Source of the DNA: Clostridia bacterium
GTDB lineage: Bacteria; Bacillota; Clostridia; Oscillospirales; CAG-272
Direction of reading: 5' to 3'
DNA length: 54,623 bases
Assembly: GCA_017466625.1 (NCBI GenBank)
Contig: JAFTTT010000064.1
Location: forward strand, 1 to 54,623
The translations under genes and the position numbers were made by a program. Below are positions 10,673 to 48,092 of the stretch, in pieces. The number at the start of each line of letters is the position of its first letter. Position 1 is the stretch's first letter. The notes below the pieces were generated by a model. That model saw only the letters and a list, made by a program, of their open reading frames with translations. It had not been told where the DNA came from and searched no databases.

Positions 10673-11728
10673 TTATATTATCTCAAGCTCGTCTTTTCCG
10701 GGGAAATTCGGATAAACGTCGTCAAGGGTGTCGGAATACCAATACGCGACCGACGAAATGTCGTCCTGAAGCGGCATATATCTCTTTTCGCTGCGCCAGC
10801 CGAGCGCCTGGATCGTTACTTTAAGGTCTTCCTTGAAGTAGATGGGATCGGTAATATGCCAACGGTACATATCGAAATAAAGCTGTGATCTGTAGAGCCG
10901 ATCGGTGCTGCCGACCTTATACATTCCTGCGTAAGGCGTCGTGTACTCAACGTACTCGCCGTTGACGTCGAAATTGTACGCACCGCAGAAATAGTCCTCT
11001 GTTCCCGTTCCGCAGACGGTCGGGAACTCCCTGTCGCCGTCGATATAGAACTTGATCTCGCCCTCACCCCACCAGCGGTTGCTCTTAACGCCCCAATGCA
11101 TGTAGGTGCCGACGTAGTGGCCGTTACCCTTTATATTGTCAAGGATAACGTACGGCTCTTTGTACGGAAGCGGATTTACGCGGCGGAACTGCGCATGGAA
11201 ATAGAGGGTTTCGGGATCAAGCACCTTTTCCTCACAGTCGATCTGGTAATAGATCTGACATTCGTCGGGTCCGATGTTTTCGACCTCGATCTTGAAGCCC
11301 TCAAAATACGGCATCTCAAAATAGCAATTGAGCCCCTTTCGCGGATTAGCGCACATAGCGATGCTCGAAAGCTGACGGTATTCCATATAGTCGGCGTTCG
11401 CGAAAAAGTCGGAGATCGGTGCTTCAACGGCGGGATTTTCGTGACCGTCGAAATAGATGCGGAGTATGAGCAGACGCCCTGCCTTCGCGCTGTCGGTAAG
11501 CCAGATGTGCTTTATCGCGCCCCGGCCCTTAATATCGGCTAGGACCGTTCTCGTCCCGGGCTGAAGCATCAGAAACGGATTTACCTTCCAGCCCTGCCCG
11601 AGCTCGCGCGACGCAAGCGAGGCGCTTCCCTCTTTTGCCATTCCGCCCTTGCCCTTTTCGCCCGTCAGATTTTCGGGAGAAACAGAAAAGGTCGTTATAT
11701 TCTTTTTCGTTGTCAGATCGCTTAACAT
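10673..11728 (-). CDS. DUF2961 / GH172-family glycoside hydrolase
   Basis: Start moved to ATG 11728 (MLSDLTTKK), preceded by GGAGG. Motifs WWGEGEIKFYIDGD and CGTGTEDYF are typical of DUF2961. Confidence 0.75.
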   Translation of the reverse strand: MLSDLTTKKNITTFSVSPENLTGEKGKGGMAKEGSASLASRELGQGWKVNPFLMLQPGTRTVLADIKGRGAIKHIWLTDSAKAGRLLILRIYFDGHENPAVEAPISDFFANADYMEYRQLSSIAMCANPRKGLNCYFEMPYFEGFKIEVENIGPDECQIYYQIDCEEKVLDPETLYFHAQFRRVNPLPYKEPYVILDNIKGNGHYVGTYMHWGVKSNRWWGEGEIKFYIDGDREFPTVCGTGTEDYFCGAYNFDVNGEYVEYTTPYAGMYKVGSTDRLYRSQLYFDMYRWHITDPIYFKEDLKVTIQALGWRSEKRYMPLQDDISSVAYWYSDTLDDVYPNFPGKDELEII

Positions 11729-11799
11729 TTGACGCCTCCACGAAGGTTTAATACACCGTAATTGTAGCATAACGATCGATTAAATGCAACCTATACAAG

Positions 11800-11826
11800 C
11801 AAAAAACAGGGCTTTCGCCCTGTTTT
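11800..11826 (-). terminator. Intrinsic terminator after the DUF4091 gene
   Basis: Minus strand reads AAAAAACAGGGC-GAAA-GCCCTGTTTTTT directly after the TAA at 11827-11829. Confidence 0.7.
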
Positions 11827-13458
11827 TTATTTTTTCTTCATTGCCGCTTCAAGAGCGTTACCGATCTCAATGCGGAGCGACGCGAAGATGTCGCTCGTCG
11901 TGTATTCGGTAACGGTCGGCGTGCCTTCCTTTGTCTTTTCGATTATCCAGTCCTTGTCGAGATACTTTTCGGCAAGATAGAAAAGCTCAACGTCCTCTGC
12001 ACCGTCGCGAAGGATCTTTGCGCGGATAGAGGGGACGCAACCCTTAACTCCTACGTCCTTTCCGGGATAGAAAAGGAATCCGCAGCCGTAAATTGCCTTG
12101 CCCTCTCCGTTAGCTATTCCCGTGTTTGTGCTTTCCCAGGGATCAACGTGATTTCCCTTCTTGTCGTATCCGTAATACGCGGTCGTCCAATAGAGGAAGC
12201 CCTCGACGTCTCTCTGATACATCTGCCAGAACATCAGACGCTGAACTACGCCCTTCGTGTCAATGAACATCTGCGCGTATGGGTCGTCGGGGTCGTTACA
12301 TACGTAAGCCCAGAGCTTATCGCCGCTTGCCTTTTGCTCTGCCATTCGCTCTGCAAAGGTCTTCTCGGGCGTATAATCAAGATAGTCCCCATAGGATCTT
12401 TCATCGTCCCAAAGACAGAGCTTCGGACACCAGAAATCCATATATTCAGCCATATCGTCGGTCTGGTCTCTGCCGTCGCCGAGCGGAAGATTCGTATAGT
12501 ACGGTGCCGTCATGGGTATCTCGGGGCAAAGCTCCTTAAGCGTTTTGTTCCACTGTCTGAGCTGAACGAGATGCTCCTCGGTTCTCGGCTCGTCGAGCGG
12601 GAGGAAATACGCCTTTTCAAGCCAATCGGAGTTTGACTTGATCTTATTGTAATACTTAAGCAGCAGTTCTTCATTTATCGTGCCGTCCTCATTCTCGGGT
12701 ATCGGAACGATAAATGACGTTCTGCGCGGGTCGGACATATACTCGTTTGCCCTATCGTCAAGTATATCGTAAGGCATATCATATGTATTTATGCCGTGCT
12801 CGATCTCCATATCGTGCCAAAGCTTATACATTTCGTCCGAGGAATCGTTATTCGAATACTGCGCCATCCACGGGCGGCTGAGTCCCGCAGAGGTCGCAAA
12901 CGATCTGTCGCTCGGAAGAGCAAAATCCCAAACGTGAACAGTTATATTGTACGTCGCATAGACCTCTCCCGATCTGGTCTTCAGCTCATAAACGTACTCG
13001 TAATCGCCTGCGGGAGTGTTTTCATCAGTCTTAAACTCGATCATAAACGGGAGAACAGTCTTTGCTTCAAGCAAAAGCCGTGTACCGTAGTAAGGAATGA
13101 GCGCATCCGTGTACTGCTTTTTGCCGATCTTATGGGTCTTATTCATGGAATAGAGCGAGACTTCGATCGCATCGTTTTCGCCCGACGCCAGTGTCAGCAT
13201 AACGTTCTTTATCCGTTCATCGGAATAGATCGCAACCTGACAGCCCTCTGTCTCTCCCTTGGCAAGATAGACCGTATAATCGGTCGAAAGATCGCCCTCA
13301 GGCGCAATATTTACAACCGTTTTTTCAAAGCTGTGAAAAGCCCACGCCTGTATTTTCACAGACGTACCGCCTCCGTTATCTGCCTTATTTTTTCCTCCGC
13401 ACGAAACAAGTGACGTCACGGTGCAGAATACAAGAATAAATAATAATGCTTTTTTCAT
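11827..13458 (-). CDS. Lipoprotein, DUF4091-like putative glycoside hydrolase (GH123-related)
   Basis: 543-aa ORF. Signal peptide plus lipobox MKKALLFILVFCTVTSLVSCGG. The family call comes from overall resemblance and the glycosidase neighbourhood, and is less certain. Confidence 0.55.
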   Translation of the reverse strand: MKKALLFILVFCTVTSLVSCGGKNKADNGGGTSVKIQAWAFHSFEKTVVNIAPEGDLSTDYTVYLAKGETEGCQVAIYSDERIKNVMLTLASGENDAIEVSLYSMNKTHKIGKKQYTDALIPYYGTRLLLEAKTVLPFMIEFKTDENTPAGDYEYVYELKTRSGEVYATYNITVHVWDFALPSDRSFATSAGLSRPWMAQYSNNDSSDEMYKLWHDMEIEHGINTYDMPYDILDDRANEYMSDPRRTSFIVPIPENEDGTINEELLLKYYNKIKSNSDWLEKAYFLPLDEPRTEEHLVQLRQWNKTLKELCPEIPMTAPYYTNLPLGDGRDQTDDMAEYMDFWCPKLCLWDDERSYGDYLDYTPEKTFAERMAEQKASGDKLWAYVCNDPDDPYAQMFIDTKGVVQRLMFWQMYQRDVEGFLYWTTAYYGYDKKGNHVDPWESTNTGIANGEGKAIYGCGFLFYPGKDVGVKGCVPSIRAKILRDGAEDVELFYLAEKYLDKDWIIEKTKEGTPTVTEYTTSDIFASLRIEIGNALEAAMKKK

Positions 13459-19112: not shown

Positions 19113-19300
19113 CGATTCCGCCGTATAAAAACAATGTTGCTATTGCATCGACACCGCTTGATGCGCAACCTACTCCTCATCCGTCAACCTGTCGGTTGAC
19201 ACCTTCCCCTCAGGGGAAGGCAAGACAACGCACCGATACTTCGCTACGTTGTTTGTAGGGGCCGAAGTCCTCGGAAGCCCGCATAAAAGCGCTGTTGCCG
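19113..19300 (+). repeat. Intergenic mosaic repeat, short form (copy 1); related to 32880-33055
   Basis: CCGCCGTATAAAAACAATGTT..., hairpins 19183-19200 and 19202-19220, then GGCAAGACAACG. About 100 nt align by hand with 32890-32980. Confidence 0.8.
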
Positions 19301-19309
19301 CATTGATAC

Positions 19310-19709
19310 AGAAATAAATATCCCCCCGCATAGCGGGGGGTATTTCAGTTTCGGGCGCAGCCCTAATATTACTGGCTGCGCACAAGTGCGCTTTAGTCCC
19401 ACCTGCCAGCCATGCATTGGATACTTGCTACCCATAAATGGGTTTCGCTCTTGGCCTCCCTTGTGTAAAGGGATGGTGCAAGTGGCATAGCCACGACCGG
19501 AGGGATTGTATATAAGCTTTTCTAACTTCTTACAACCCCTCAGTCTTCAGTAGTTTGCGCTTCGCGCAACCTACCGCAGACAGCTCCCCTTGCACAGGGG
19601 AGCCATTGGCACAAACTTCCCTTAAACTACATTTTTCTTTACATCATTTCTGTTCATCGCTTAACCTTTTTTGAACCACGCTCCTCACGCGTGGTTTTCA
19701 TTTACAAAA
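19310..19709 (-). repeat. Intergenic mosaic element, long form, copy A (candidate structured ncRNA or MITE)
   Basis: Its reverse complement matches 47632-48086. The 5' block (19599-19706) and the 3' block (19312-19444) are near-identical, the core is divergent. It ends in the hairpin CCCCCCGC-TAT-GCGGGGGG plus a T-rich run. Confidence 0.85.
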
Positions 19710-19744
19710 AAAGGCCGAAGCTTAGCTAAGCTTCGGCCTTTTTG
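19706..19744 (-). terminator. Intrinsic terminator after the 19745-20314 gene
   Basis: AGGCCGAAGCTTAGCTAAGCTTCGGCCT long perfect hairpin with flanking A/T runs, directly after the TAA at 19745-19747. Confidence 0.8.
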
Positions 19745-32778: not shown

Positions 32779-32809
32779 AAAAAACACCGCCGAGGCGGTG
32801 TTTTCTTTT
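32779..32809 (+). terminator. Intrinsic terminator after the ABC-2 operon
   Basis: AAAAAACACCGCC-GAG-GCGGTGTTTTCTTTT. Confidence 0.8.
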
Positions 32810-32879: not shown

Positions 32880-33055
32880 CACGCGCTCCCGCCGTTAAAA
32901 AACAATGTTACATCGCACCCGAACACCTCATCCACCACCTTCGGTGGTCCCCTTCCCCTGAGGGGAAGGCAAGACAACGTATCGAAGCTTCCTTAATCCG
33001 AAAGGGAATTCCAAAGGGGAAAACGTATAAAAAACGCATTCGCGTTTTTTGTCGG
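32880..33055 (+). repeat. Intergenic mosaic repeat, short form (copy 2), ending in its own terminator-like hairpin
   Basis: CCGCCGTTAAAAAACAATGTT..., hairpins 32934-32948 and 32951-32969, GGCAAGACAACG, then AAAAAACGC-ATTC-GCGTTTTTT (about 33029-33050). Confidence 0.8.
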
Positions 33056-33123
33056 TTGTCCCCTTGGCGTGTTTCTTTGCGAGCGTTTCTTTTCACGAGA
33101 AAAGAAATGCGAAAAAACTCATC

Positions 33124-33152
33124 TTGACAAATTTCGATATCAATAATATAAT
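33124..33152 (+). promoter_or_regulatory. Consensus sigma-A promoter of the Rrf2-ThrE operon
   Basis: TTGACA (33124-33129), 17 nt, TATAAT (33147-33152). Confidence 0.55.
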
Positions 33153-44600: not shown

Positions 44601-45575
44601 ATGAATCATATATCGTTTCCCGGCCTCGGGATAAAGGAATTTGCCGTTAACCCTCAAGCTTTTGAGCTTTTCGGCCGTCCCGTTATGTGGTACGGAGTCA
44701 TCATTTCCTTCGGAATGATCCTCGCCGTGCTCTACGTTCTCTACCGCGCAAAGCACAATGAAAATATCAAACAGGACGACGTTTTCGATTACGCCATCTG
44801 GGCAGTTCTCTCGGGCGTTATCGGAGCGCGCATTTACTACGTCGCGACGAAGTTCGAGGACTACAAGGCGGACACTCCTCTTGAGACCTTCAAAAACTGT
44901 ATCGCGATATGGGAGGGCGGAATCGCCATCTACGGCGCGATAATCGGAGGGCTTCTTGCCGTCATCGCCGTTTCTTACTTTAAGAAGATCAAGCTCGGCA
45001 AGGCGCTCGATATGATATCCCCTGCCGTGATGCTCGCACAGTCGATCGGACGTTGGGGCAACTTCTTCAACGCCGAGGCGCACGGCGGACCTACCACGCT
45101 CCCCTGGCGAATGGGTATCCGCAACGACGAATTCCCGAGTGCGGTTTACGTTCATCCGACCTTCCTTTACGAGTCTCTTTGGAACATCCTCGGATTTGTA
45201 CTTATAAATCTCTTTTATAAAAAGAAAAAATACGACGGGCAGATCTTCGTTATGTACCTGACCTGGTACGGCTTCGGAAGAATGCTCATTGAGGGTCTCC
45301 GTACCGACTCGCTTTACGTCGGCTCCTTCCGCATATCGCAGGTGATTGGCTTCCTCTGCTTCTTTATCGGAGCTTGCTTCCTTTCCGCTATGGAGATAGT
45401 ACGTCACCTTCGCAAAAAGGACGAGGAGACGGCCGCGCTTGAAGCAAATGACGAGGAAGAAAAAGCCGAGGAAGAAAAAGCCGAGGTCAAAGAGGAAGAA
45501 AAAGCAGAAGAAAAGAAGGACGACGGAGTTTTTGAGATCGCCGACAATTACAGTGGCGACGAGGACGATGACTGA
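44601..45575 (+). CDS. lgt: Prolipoprotein diacylglyceryl transferase with an acidic low-complexity C-terminal tail
   Basis: 324-aa ORF. Motifs GGIAIYGAIIGG, GRWGNFFNAEAHG, PTFLYESLWN. Extra Glu/Lys-rich tail of about 55 aa. Confidence 0.85.
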   Translation: MNHISFPGLGIKEFAVNPQAFELFGRPVMWYGVIISFGMILAVLYVLYRAKHNENIKQDDVFDYAIWAVLSGVIGARIYYVATKFEDYKADTPLETFKNCIAIWEGGIAIYGAIIGGLLAVIAVSYFKKIKLGKALDMISPAVMLAQSIGRWGNFFNAEAHGGPTTLPWRMGIRNDEFPSAVYVHPTFLYESLWNILGFVLINLFYKKKKYDGQIFVMYLTWYGFGRMLIEGLRTDSLYVGSFRISQVIGFLCFFIGACFLSAMEIVRHLRKKDEETAALEANDEEEKAEEEKAEVKEEEKAEEKKDDGVFEIADNYSGDEDDD

Positions 45576-46913: not shown

Positions 46914-47264
46914 ATGATCAAGGTCACATTCTTCAAAAGAGACGGCGTTTATTACGGCTTCAGAGAAACCGGTCATGCGGGATTCGACGATGCCGGTAAG
47001 GATATCGTTTGTGCGGCTGTGTCCGCTATGACGATGCTCGTCATAAATGCTATTGAGGTCTCTTACGAATCAAACGTTGAGTATTCTATCGACGAGGACA
47101 CCGCTGATATCGAGGTCAGAGTGCCGAGCGCGCTCCCCGAGAACAGCGACGACGAAACGAAGCGTTTCGCCGTATCGGGTCTTATCGGTGCGTACTTCCT
47201 TCAGCTTATCGATATGCTTGAGGATTACGACGAATATCTTGACGTAAACGAGGTCGAGGACTAA
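46914..47264 (+). CDS. prp: Ribosomal-processing cysteine protease Prp (YsxB family)
   Basis: 116-aa ORF between rplU and rpmA. Motifs GHAGF...G.DIVCAAVSA (catalytic His/Cys). Confidence 0.85.
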   Translation: MIKVTFFKRDGVYYGFRETGHAGFDDAGKDIVCAAVSAMTMLVINAIEVSYESNVEYSIDEDTADIEVRVPSALPENSDDETKRFAVSGLIGAYFLQLIDMLEDYDEYLDVNEVED

Positions 47265-47311
47265 CGGTGCCTCGGCGCAACACATTTAACGATTAACGGA
47301 GGTAAGAAACG

Positions 47312-47590
47312 ATGTTGAAGCTTAATCTTCAATTCTTTGCTCATAAGAAGGGCGTTGGTTCCACTAAGAACGGCCGTGACTCTGAGTCCAAGCGTCTTGG
47401 TGCGAAGAAGGCAGACGGCCAGAGCGTAATCGCCGGCAATATCATTGTCAGACAGCGCGGAACTCACATCCACCCCGGTAAGAACGTAGGTCGCGGTAAG
47501 GACGATACCCTTTTCGCACTCACGAACGGTGTGGTCCGTTTCGAGCATATGACTCGTGATAAGAAGCGCGTCAGCGTTTACGAGGACTGA
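47312..47590 (+). CDS. rpmA: 50S ribosomal protein L27 with N-terminal propeptide
   Basis: 92-aa [12 protein letters not shown]|[15 protein letters not shown]: the Firmicute-type extension removed by Prp. Confidence 0.9.
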
Positions 47591-47600
47591 TTCACCAAAT

Positions 47601-47629
47601 AAAAAGAACGCCGAACGGCGTTCTTTTTT
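47601..47629 (+). terminator. Intrinsic terminator after rpmA
   Basis: AAAAAGAACGCC-GAA-CGGCGTTCTTTTTT. Confidence 0.85.
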
Positions 47630-47631
47630 AT

Positions 47632-48086
47632 TTGTGAATGAAAACCACGCGTGAGGAGCGTGGTTCAAAAAAAGGTTAACCGATGAACAGAAATGATGTA
47701 AAGAAAAAATGTAGTTTAAGGGTAGTTTGTGCCAATGGCTCCAACTCCGGAGTAGTTTGCTGCGCAACCTACGGGAGCTGTCACCGAAGGTGACTGAAGG
47801 AGCCATCGGGCGAGAAACGTCCGATAGAAGATATTTACAGAACCGCCCTAATGAGAAGGGCAACGCTCTATAATTCCTTTCATCGCGTGCTCCTTCCGTC
47901 TTTTTGCTTCGCAAAAATCCACCTCCCTCCCGGAGGGAGGCAATGAAACGTCCCTGAACCCATTTATGGGTAGCAAGTATCAAATGCATGGCTGGCAGGT
48001 GGGACTAAAGCGCACTTGTGCGCAGCCAGTAGTATTAGGGCTACGCCCGAAAATGAAATACCCCCCGCTATGCGGGGGGATATTTG
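47632..48086 (+). repeat. Intergenic mosaic element, long form, copy B (candidate structured ncRNA or MITE)
   Basis: Matches the reverse complement of 19310-19709 at its 5' block (47634-47742) and 3' block (47957-48084). 214-nt hairpin-rich core. Ends in CCCCCCGC-TAT-GCGGGGGG plus ATATTTGTTTTT. Confidence 0.85.
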
Positions 48087-48092
48087 TTTTTA

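Follow-up and report, generated by a model that had tools for sequence, protein, structure and literature searches.

A five-hairpin intergenic repeat from a Clostridia genome with the anatomy of CGTC-type REP dimers

Bacterial genomes harbor several kinds of small dispersed palindromes, and the closest described ones to the element reported here are the CGTC-tagged repetitive extragenic palindromes (REPs). The text of Di Nocera, De Gregorio and Rocco (2013, BMC Genomics 14:522; PMC3733652) describes them as short (20-40 bp), mostly intergenic palindromes of high copy number with a CGTC (or TGTC/CCTC) head and a CCA tail, an 8-9 bp stem that starts with A/T and a loop of 4-5 nt, being the stem and loop sequences heterogeneous within a family. 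According to the same text, they mostly form head-to-head dimers with spacers whose ends are often complementary, their neighboring genes are unidirectional or convergent, no transposase is associated with them, and they occur in five phyla, Firmicutes not listed, mainly in Alphaproteobacteria including the Sphingomonads S. wittichii and S. chlorophenolicum; dRS3 is counted there as a CGTC-1 REP. Here we analyze a 54,623-nt stretch of a Clostridia bacterium (assembly GCA_017466625.1, contig JAFTTT010000064.1, positions 1 to 54,623; hereafter the window), a Firmicute chromosome segment with rplU-prp-rpmA and genes with TspO, TrkH, Rrf2 and VanY domains. A sequence-only reading of the window had noticed a two-hairpin module that occurs four times. 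We found that this module is the terminal half of a dispersed, non-coding and near-palindromic intergenic repeat of the REP, REP-dimer or bacterial interspersed mosaic element (BIME) kind, which probably acts at the DNA level and would be copied in hairpin pieces by means of some enzyme.

Other families also offer points of comparison. REPINs, as Bertels and Rainey reportedly described them in 2011, consist of an inverted REP pair and a spacer, can fold as one long hairpin and are mobilised by RAYT (REP-associated tyrosine transposase). They have GTAG-type heads, are fairly homogeneous within a genome, and come with a single-copy RAYT gene flanked by REPs. The unit described here resembles them in having two inverted hairpins and a spacer, in the presence of singlets beside doublets, and in its high copy number and intergenic location, but it has a CGTC-type head and its stems differ between copies in one genome. 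In E. coli BIMEs and in the Neisseria intergenic mosaic elements with dRS3, alternating small palindromes are interleaved with other repeat modules; BIMEs bind IHF and gyrase, and dRS3 is a phage integration target. Our repeat is likewise a mosaic with hairpins nested within other repeats, and by impression the sequences appear unrelated. Streptococcus BOX elements are composed of boxA, boxB and boxC modules without CGTC or CCA-tagged hairpins, while RUP and bcr1 have target-site duplications and inverted repeats like those of insertion sequences. These three are, as the present one, modular, multi-copy and foldable intergenic repeats of Firmicutes, and, judged by impression alone, no resemblance in sequence was seen.

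The four modules are present in the window with hairpins 1 and 2 and tails as they had been described, and their coordinates are collected in Table 1. A covariance model of the half-unit (R1), whose seed was mostly made of unrelated metagenome copies (23) and also contained the window copy S1, recovered all four sites in a search that, including the window, spanned 162 kb. The matches had E = 3.5e-14 for S1 (a seed copy), 1e-8 for S2, 1.3e-5 for the right half of unit B (47887-47946) and 3e-3 for the right half of unit A on the minus strand; the remaining ones in the window were the mirror left half of unit A (plus strand, E = 0.018) and antisense matches to the palindromic hairpin 2. Upon single-strand folding, the two-hairpin structure was the minimum-energy fold on both strands in three of the four modules (z = -2.7 to -5.7, the latter value for S1), and the module of unit A, with its bulged hairpin 2, folded marginally (z = -2.3 and -1.8). 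All three window sites are intergenic and lie between unidirectional or convergent genes (3/3). In agreement with what had been proposed, the module is neither coding nor a recent duplication, and alignments within the window place two copies inside long elements and two in short ones.

The module had been taken as a unit of its own. Instead, it constitutes the right-hand half of a five-hairpin unit of ~130 nt with defined ends. A scan with hairpin 2 plus the tail as query yielded 10 loci from viral contigs and at least 120 from metagenomes (human gut, giraffe and other JGI/ENA metagenome records), which together make at least 128 distinct instances, and R1 gave 156 matches on 100 metagenome loci (670 kb). 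Nearly all instances share a pyrimidine-rich junction (CCTCATCC, CCCCTCC or CCCTCTCC, usually then G), a variable hairpin, CA, the palindrome CCTYCCC-loop-GGGRAGG and CAAGA. The upstream extension of metagenome copies revealed a near-palindromic full unit of 120-140 nt and five hairpins with sharp ends, YCTTGG...GGCAAGA. Its order is YCTTGG, hpA (the far-left hairpin, CTCCCC..GGGGAG), hpB (the second one, which carries a TGTC/AGTC head), a central hairpin (GAGGGG..CCCCTC), hairpin 1, which usually has CGTC as its head and CCA as its tail, hairpin 2 (the conserved palindrome CCTYCCC..GGGRAGG) and GGCAAGA. In this anatomy, two CGTC-type REP hairpins, hairpin 1 and hpB, are placed head to head with a structured spacer between them, and this dimer is flanked by two conserved palindromes, hairpin 2 and hpA. 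RNAfold predicts for the full unit either five local hairpins or a long closing stem, formed by hpA and hairpin 2, that bears three arms. We found this full layout in units A and B of the window, in loci L011 and L012, in 22 metagenome units and in Sphingomonas. Eight copies with unrelated flank pairs have exactly the same left and right boundaries, and the termini of the unit are imperfect inverted repeats of 12-13 nt. Some copies hold extra small palindromes inserted in the hpA loop. Half-units and isolated hairpins are frequent. Hairpin 2 alone, with both unit termini (CTTGGCCA-CCTCCCTCGCAGAGGGAGG-CAAGA), was seen at L161:1282-1324, L162:8243-8297, L082:437-478 and L107:1328-1366; such copies may have arisen by collapse of a unit, or they may be palindromes that the REP dimer targets and that are empty.

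The observation that pairing is kept while the stem sequence varies was borne out in this larger sample. Among 132 distinct R1 copies, standard pairs occupied 92.8% of cells against 73.0% in shuffles, 418 cells were changed on both sides against 142 in shuffles, both-side changes occurred in 14 of 15 pairs against a shuffled mean of 9.9, and the covariation score was 0.49, compared with 0.05-0.14 when the partners were slid by 1-3 columns; these figures lean towards structure since the alignment was fitted to R1. An unfitted, right-anchored listing of copies displays the same pairing pattern by eye. It had been considered that the stem differences might be no better than shuffles and the copies confined to the window; neither was found, and copies are widespread in metagenomes. 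Hairpin 1 had 100 distinct sequences in 125 copies, with stems mostly of 5-7 bp, loops of 3 nt (61 copies) or 4 nt (51 copies), and loop sequences that were mostly TTC, TGCG, TGC or TAC. Even in six copies of the window species the stems are GTCAACC, ACCACC, TTTTTGC, GTGGC, CATTTGC and GTCAGC. The view that hairpin-1 stems are unrelated yet paired holds across copies but not for S1 and S2, whose stems differ by about one double change and an indel; these two are simply homologous in sequence (84% identity across 51 nt), S2 having a 19-nt gap. In addition, a class ACCxCC...GGxGGT-CCC recurs in S2 and metagenome copies and, with the stem ACCGC/GCGGT, in Sphingomonas; therefore part of the stem "compensation" reflects different hairpin classes and not step-wise covariation. 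In the tail that had been regarded as conserved, the GGCAAGA terminus is indeed kept (degenerate in the two long-element copies), while the CAACG extension is local to S1 and S2.

Selection on structure, either as RNA or as a DNA hairpin, had been suggested for the module. The conserved pairing agrees with this, but the RNA half of the proposal fared worse. The lack of a wobble excess, the folding of both strands, the absence of orientation bias and the gain and loss of hairpin-sized pieces point to a DNA-level repeat rather than a structured RNA. At always-paired stem positions, G·T/T·G accounted for ~0.7% of cells and A·C/C·A for ~0.6% (10 vs 9), and in a structured RNA G·U is normally much better tolerated than A·C. 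The two strands do not differ in how well they fold. The strand bias that had been put forward as a check did not appear: with crude open reading frame (ORF) calls, the upstream ORF had the same orientation as the copy in 31 cases and the opposite in 24, and the downstream one in 28 and 37, respectively. The gene pairs around metagenome copies were 26 unidirectional, 13 convergent and 7 divergent by these naive calls, a gene context that is only indicative because 57 of 131 copies fell "inside" long ORFs that are probably spurious in GC-rich DNA. Regarding the pieces, hairpin 1 (11 nt, ACCGCTATCGCGGT-type) is missing in the copy at L002:11488-11527 and present in the orthologous L003:~11855-11910, and a half-unit of 53-65 nt (boundary ambiguous) is inserted in a small hairpin of L162 that is intact in L107. 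Moreover, the inner part of the unit (hpB, central hairpin and hairpin 1) is inverted in L012:1-260 relative to L011:1-260, with the same 3' block adjoining, which could be due to recombination between near-identical flanking palindromes or to insertion in both orientations.

These same data bear on the alternative that the unit is primarily a structured RNA, either a 3'- or 5'-untranslated region element involved in stability, exonuclease block or termination, or a small RNA, an alternative that we consider unlikely. It would account for the strong covariation and for the very stable hairpins, with loops TNC or TGCG (UNCG-like) closed by C-G. Both the window units and those of Sphingomonas are located downstream of genes, and several metagenome copies are found 15-30 nt upstream of a start codon. 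The loop identity does not decide between RNA and DNA, since the loop complements GAA, GCA and GTA closed by C-G are unusually stable DNA triloops and TGCG is a UNCG-type RNA loop. Also, Di Nocera et al. argue in the text of PMC3733652 that many REPs act as RNA. Against it stand the G·T wobble, no commoner than A·C, the same fold on both strands without orientation bias relative to ORFs, the whole hairpins inserted, deleted or inverted between close relatives, and a tail, CAAGA, that is no U-tract. Rfam gave no family match at any threshold either, which also answers the concern that the module might belong to an already described RNA family: there was no gathering-score match in the whole window or in 11 unit-bearing loci, no match at E <= 1 for one complete unit, and, for three intergenic regions at E <= 10, no non-terminator match at E < 1e-3, with weak terminator-like ones only. 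For a DNA-level repeat, an RNA-level side effect on upstream transcripts is possible.

The REP/BIME-like character proposed in the sequence-only reading is essentially right, in the sense that the organization is a mosaic of nested small palindromes, with nested GTAG hairpins, half-units and long elements. That reading could match no named family; however, the CGTC-tagged REP superfamily, as presented in the text of PMC3733652, fits hairpin 1. The likeness comprises the general anatomy of hairpin 1 (CCGTC-stem-loop-stem-CCA, about half of the copies lacking the exact head or tail), its heterogeneous stem and loop sequences, the high copy number and intergenic location, the occurrence in Sphingomonads, the two inward-facing hairpins around a central stem-loop in full units, and a gene context that is unidirectional or convergent in the window (3/3) and in Sphingomonas (8/8). 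The flanking CCTYCCC/GGGRAGG hairpins and the YCTTGG/GGCAAGA termini belong to the present unit, and the text of PMC3733652 makes no mention of them. Within the window, the heads are CCGTC in S1 and B, CCAC in S2 and GGTC in A, and the tails are TCCA in B, ACA in S1, CC(C) in S2 and GCA in A. In the present hairpin 1, pairing between the tail and the tag is possible through the G and C of the latter. The first variable pair is A-T or T-A in 56 of 132 copies (~42%), compared with the A/T-first stem given in that text.

Several observations weigh against the reading of the module as half of a REP-type repeat copied at the DNA level. The head is (C/A)GTC in only 62 of 132 copies (47%), the rest being CGGC, CGCC or CGAC, and the tail is xCCA in 70 of 132 (53%), with GACA in 25 and GGCA in 17; in comparison with the 8-9 bp stems and 4-5 nt loops in the text of PMC3733652, those of the unit measure 5-7 bp and 3-4 nt. 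The diversity of hairpin-1 stems within one genome is unlike classical REPIN populations. No target-site duplication was found in the eight copies with unrelated flanks, no clean empty/filled site for the whole unit emerged from an all-against-all comparison of loci, and the sole insertion polymorphism is the half-unit of ambiguous boundary in L162 vs L107. No mobilising enzyme was found: in the search for a RAYT, which had been suggested as a check, tblastn with seven RAYT/TIRYT proteins from the supplement of PMC3733652 gave 0 matches in 1.49 Mb of unit-bearing loci, a weak negative. Finally, an RNA role would likewise be compatible with loops of such high stability (TNC; TGCG) and with a position downstream of genes.

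Under the reading that we nevertheless favor, the repeat would be copied, inserted, inverted and trimmed in hairpin-sized pieces, and the intermediates would probably be single-stranded or cruciform hairpins. The enzyme would read the invariant junction motifs (CCTCCG, CCA-CCTCCCC and GGCAAGA) and the hairpin shape, not the stem sequence, and, since recognition or templating would act on the shape of the hairpin, pairing of the stems would be maintained, perhaps with a contribution from the self-templating of palindromes in replication. The element would persist downstream of genes, where it would be least harmful, and effects on upstream mRNA stability or termination would be secondary. The sharp ends, the imperfect 12-13 nt inverted termini, the high copy number, the unrelated flanks and the nested insertions could also be explained by a classical miniature inverted-repeat transposable element, that is, a deletion derivative of an insertion sequence with a DDE transposase, mobilised in trans via its terminal inverted repeats (YCTTGSCYCCCTC). 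We regard this as improbable, as the eight copies with different flanks lack target-site duplications, the inverted termini are themselves hairpin arms, no full-length partner element appeared in the 1.49 Mb of loci, half-units and isolated hairpins are frequent, and the internal architecture matches REP dimers. Another explanation dispenses with selection on structure: pairing would be kept by mutation bias (quasi-palindrome correction, template switching) and the elements would be inert by-products. Stems whose Watson-Crick pairing is nearly always perfect and which show very few wobble intermediates, as well as hairpin-sized indels, including one insertion in a small-hairpin loop that duplicates the arm of that hairpin in inverted form, speak for it, but it leaves unexplained both the unpaired junctions and termini conserved from Clostridia-type contigs to Sphingomonas and the kept order and spacing of the five hairpins, and we give it very little credence. 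Two transposase candidates were discarded: an ORF of L098 between facing units reads like a glycosyltransferase on sequence inspection, and a 143-aa gene beside rpmA in relatives has no significant Pfam match.

The finding of homologues outside the Firmicutes concerns Sphingomonas. A gut-metagenome unit matched Sphingomonas DNA with 75% identity over 131 nt (E = 9e-9), the five-hairpin unit is present in replicons of Sphingomonas parapaucimobilis and S. sanguinis, and R1 matches to Sphingomonas half-units reached E down to 1.5e-12. The density is about five units per 50 kb, each of them intergenic, and the eight sites inspected comprise 7 unidirectional, 1 convergent and 0 divergent gene pairs. 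Between Clostridia-type contigs and Sphingomonas, both the unpaired junction motifs and the termini have been conserved, and one Sphingomonas unit has a left REP of the class ACCGC...GCGGT-CCC that is shared with S2 hairpin 1 (ACCACC...GGTGGT-CC). It is conceivable, although we hold it as a rather doubtful proposal, that the five-hairpin unit is a single replicator lineage present in gut Clostridia-type bacteria and Alphaproteobacteria, ancient or horizontally spread, and mobilised by an enzyme that acts via junctions and hairpin geometry, not stem sequence. The S. parapaucimobilis segment examined (L192, NZ_CP155750.1, 150000-199999) also contains many paired palindromes CCCTCCCGCxxGCGGGAGGG, 60-110 nt apart and with complementary loops, for example 19267/19377, 21095/21158 and 39280/39360; the pair 15029/15106 holds a central hairpin without REP arms. 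These pairs suggest a scaffold that occurs with or without CGTC hairpins. The NZ_CP155750.1 record, labeled as a "plasmid", carries the housekeeping genes clpX, tig and gatCAB.

Table 1. Positions of the half-units, units, long elements and associated palindromes in the 54,623-nt window.
Feature	Positions	Strand	Details	Basis
S2 half-unit, focal copy	32923-32974	+	junction motif ACACCTCATCC at 32923-32933	not in R1 seed
S2 hairpin 1, ACCACC/GGTGGT	32934-32948	+		sequence
S2 hairpin 2, CCTTCCCCT/AGGGGAAGG	32951-32969	+	terminus GGCAAGA at 32968-32974	sequence
S1 half-unit	19172-19225	+	junction motif CTCCTCATCC	sequence, R1 seed member
S1 hairpin 1, CGTC-headed, GTCAACC/GGTTGAC	19183-19200	+		sequence
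S1 hairpin 2	19202-19220	+	terminus GGCAAGA at 19219-19225	sequence
Unit B hairpin 1	47901-47917	+	TTTTTGC stem	sequence
Unit B hairpin 2	47922-47940	+		sequence
Unit A hairpin 1	19482-19494	-	GTGGC stem	sequence
Unit A hairpin 2, bulged	19455-19476	-		sequence
Unit B, full	47734-47946	+	left terminus AATGGCTCC, right terminus GGCAATGA	sequence, alignment with A
Unit A, full	19449-19609	-	right half 19449-19509, terminus GGCCAAGA; left half 19532-19605	
Long element B	47632-48090	+	5' block 47632-47742; five-hairpin unit; 3' block ~47955-48090	
Long element A	19307-19712	-	5' and 3' blocks as in B, different five-hairpin unit within	
GTAG...CTAC mini-hairpin, GTAGTTTGC tgc GCAACCTAC	47752-47772	+	in hpA loop of unit B	
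GTAG...CTAC mini-hairpin, GTAGTTTGCGC ttc GCGCAACCTAC	19550-19574	+	in hpB of unit A	
Head of short element S2, CCGCCGTTAAAAAACAATGTT	32889-32909	+	akin to the inner flank of relatives' GTAG-type palindromes	
Head of short element S1, CCGCCGTATAAAAACAATGTTGC	19118-19140	+	inverted partner GCTACGTTGTTT-GTAG-GGGCCGAAGTCCTCGGAAGCCC at 19243-19280	

The two long elements of the window, A and B, have opposite orientations and share a ~111-nt 5' block and a ~135-nt 3' block that are 96-98% identical, while the 150-210 nt between the blocks differ and consist in each case of one full unit. In unit B, hpA is GCTCC...GGAGC with a GTAG hairpin nested in its loop, hpB is TGTCACC gaa GGTGAC (47780-47794), and the central stem is formed by AAGGAGC (47797-47803) pairing with GCTCCTT (47889-47895), followed by CCGTC, hairpin 1, TCCA and hairpin 2. 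Units homologous to that of A are found in L011 and L012. Two convergent genes, rpmA (+) and one with a VanY domain (-), enclose long element B, which follows the rpmA terminator and whose 3' block ends in a bidirectional terminator, CCCCCCGCTATGCGGGGGG. This element is identical in two metagenome contigs and absent from the relative L009. The 3' block of the long element had two matches, both at contig ends of one metagenome-assembled species ("Eubacteriales bacterium"), and several metagenome contigs end inside the long element, as expected for a multi-copy repeat. We also observed that A and B each start right after the terminator of a gene, that in B, L011 and L012 the element's own bidirectional terminator abuts the 3' end of a convergent gene, and that A ends beside S1. 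A hairpin of the 3' block, CCCATTTATGGG in the window (47966-47977), is CCCGTTTACGGG in L011:126-137 and L012:134-145, with one compensatory change from A-T to G-C. A mobile repeat specific to this species is one possible identity of the long element; another is a small RNA gene with a single site where REP insertion is tolerated.

The two GTAG mini-hairpins occupy different host hairpins in opposite orientation relative to the unit, with one mismatch conserved, and look like GTAG-tagged REPs inserted into hairpins. S1 and S2 represent only the right half of the unit, beside GTAG-type REP-like sequences. In L001 and L003 the sequence GTAGGGCGGGGGCTTGCTCCCGCCGCACAAAAACGATGT... occurs with an inverted partner, and in L003 this head precedes a half-unit. 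A second repeat family is thereby apparent, composed of GTAG-headed palindromes, GTAGGGCGGGGGCTTGCTCCCGCCG ... CGGCGGGAGCAAGCCCCCGCCCTAC, at L001:11105-11230, L003:11107-11230 and 11609-11800, and 19243-19280 of the window, in which the CCGCCG..AAAAAC(A/G)ATGT "head" of the short elements forms the inner flank. Around S2, the 415-nt gap contains two bidirectional terminator-like hairpins, a further AT-rich hairpin and a perfect TTGACA-17-TATAAT promoter ahead of the Rrf2-family gene (32781-32804, 33029-33050, 33084-33111 and 33124-33152). Elsewhere in the window, a 15-nt tandem repeat, GAGGAAGAAAAAGCC, at 45438-45523 is located inside the 3' end of the ORF 44601-45575, the counterpart of which in relatives has an LGT domain.

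Other identities were tried and rejected. The module is not an intrinsic terminator, as hairpin 2 is followed by CAAGA and the real terminators adjoin the elements and are not within them; the one terminator-like call, at 47943-47919 on the minus strand, uses the hairpin-1 arm as its T-run. No tRNA or tmRNA was found. A hammerhead ribozyme was considered for some left halves containing CTGATGAGG, in which GAUGA is inside the central helix and stem II lacks a following GAAA; the motif is not conserved, being GACTGAGGG or GACTGAAGG in other copies. For the long elements, an ORF-less group II intron was dismissed, with no visible GUGYG 5' end or domain V and no Rfam match. Regarding coding, the 242-aa ORF at 47261-47989 (minus strand), which crosses rpmA in antisense and lacks a Pfam match, is spurious, and a short ATG frame in the 5' block is broken by a 1-nt indel between A and B. 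A loose anchor pattern, CCTCATCC..CCT..AGGCAAGA, gave mostly chance or coding matches. A literature search by sequence strings and general terms returned nothing relevant; PMC3733652 surfaced via a REPIN/RAYT search.

A REP-type repeat belongs to an ordinary bacterial class, and the new points here are the host phylum, the conserved flanking hairpins and termini, and the similarity with Sphingomonas. The near-identical junction motifs in the latter are unexpected for a non-coding repeat. The units break metagenome assemblies and, with covariation statistics that look so good, one may wrongly take them for structured RNAs. Where intergenic DNA is rich in repeats, they also lead to the calling of spurious ORFs. 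With a CGTC-type REP dimer in a Eubacteriales genome, the superfamily would reach a phylum not listed in the text of the 2013 survey (PMC3733652). CGTC-type REPs have so far been "orphans" without a transposase and, if the single lineage proves true, its distribution across phyla would allow a search for the enzyme; in this sense, phylogenetic profiling of genomes with and without the unit may be a route to the propagator of these transposase-less REPs.

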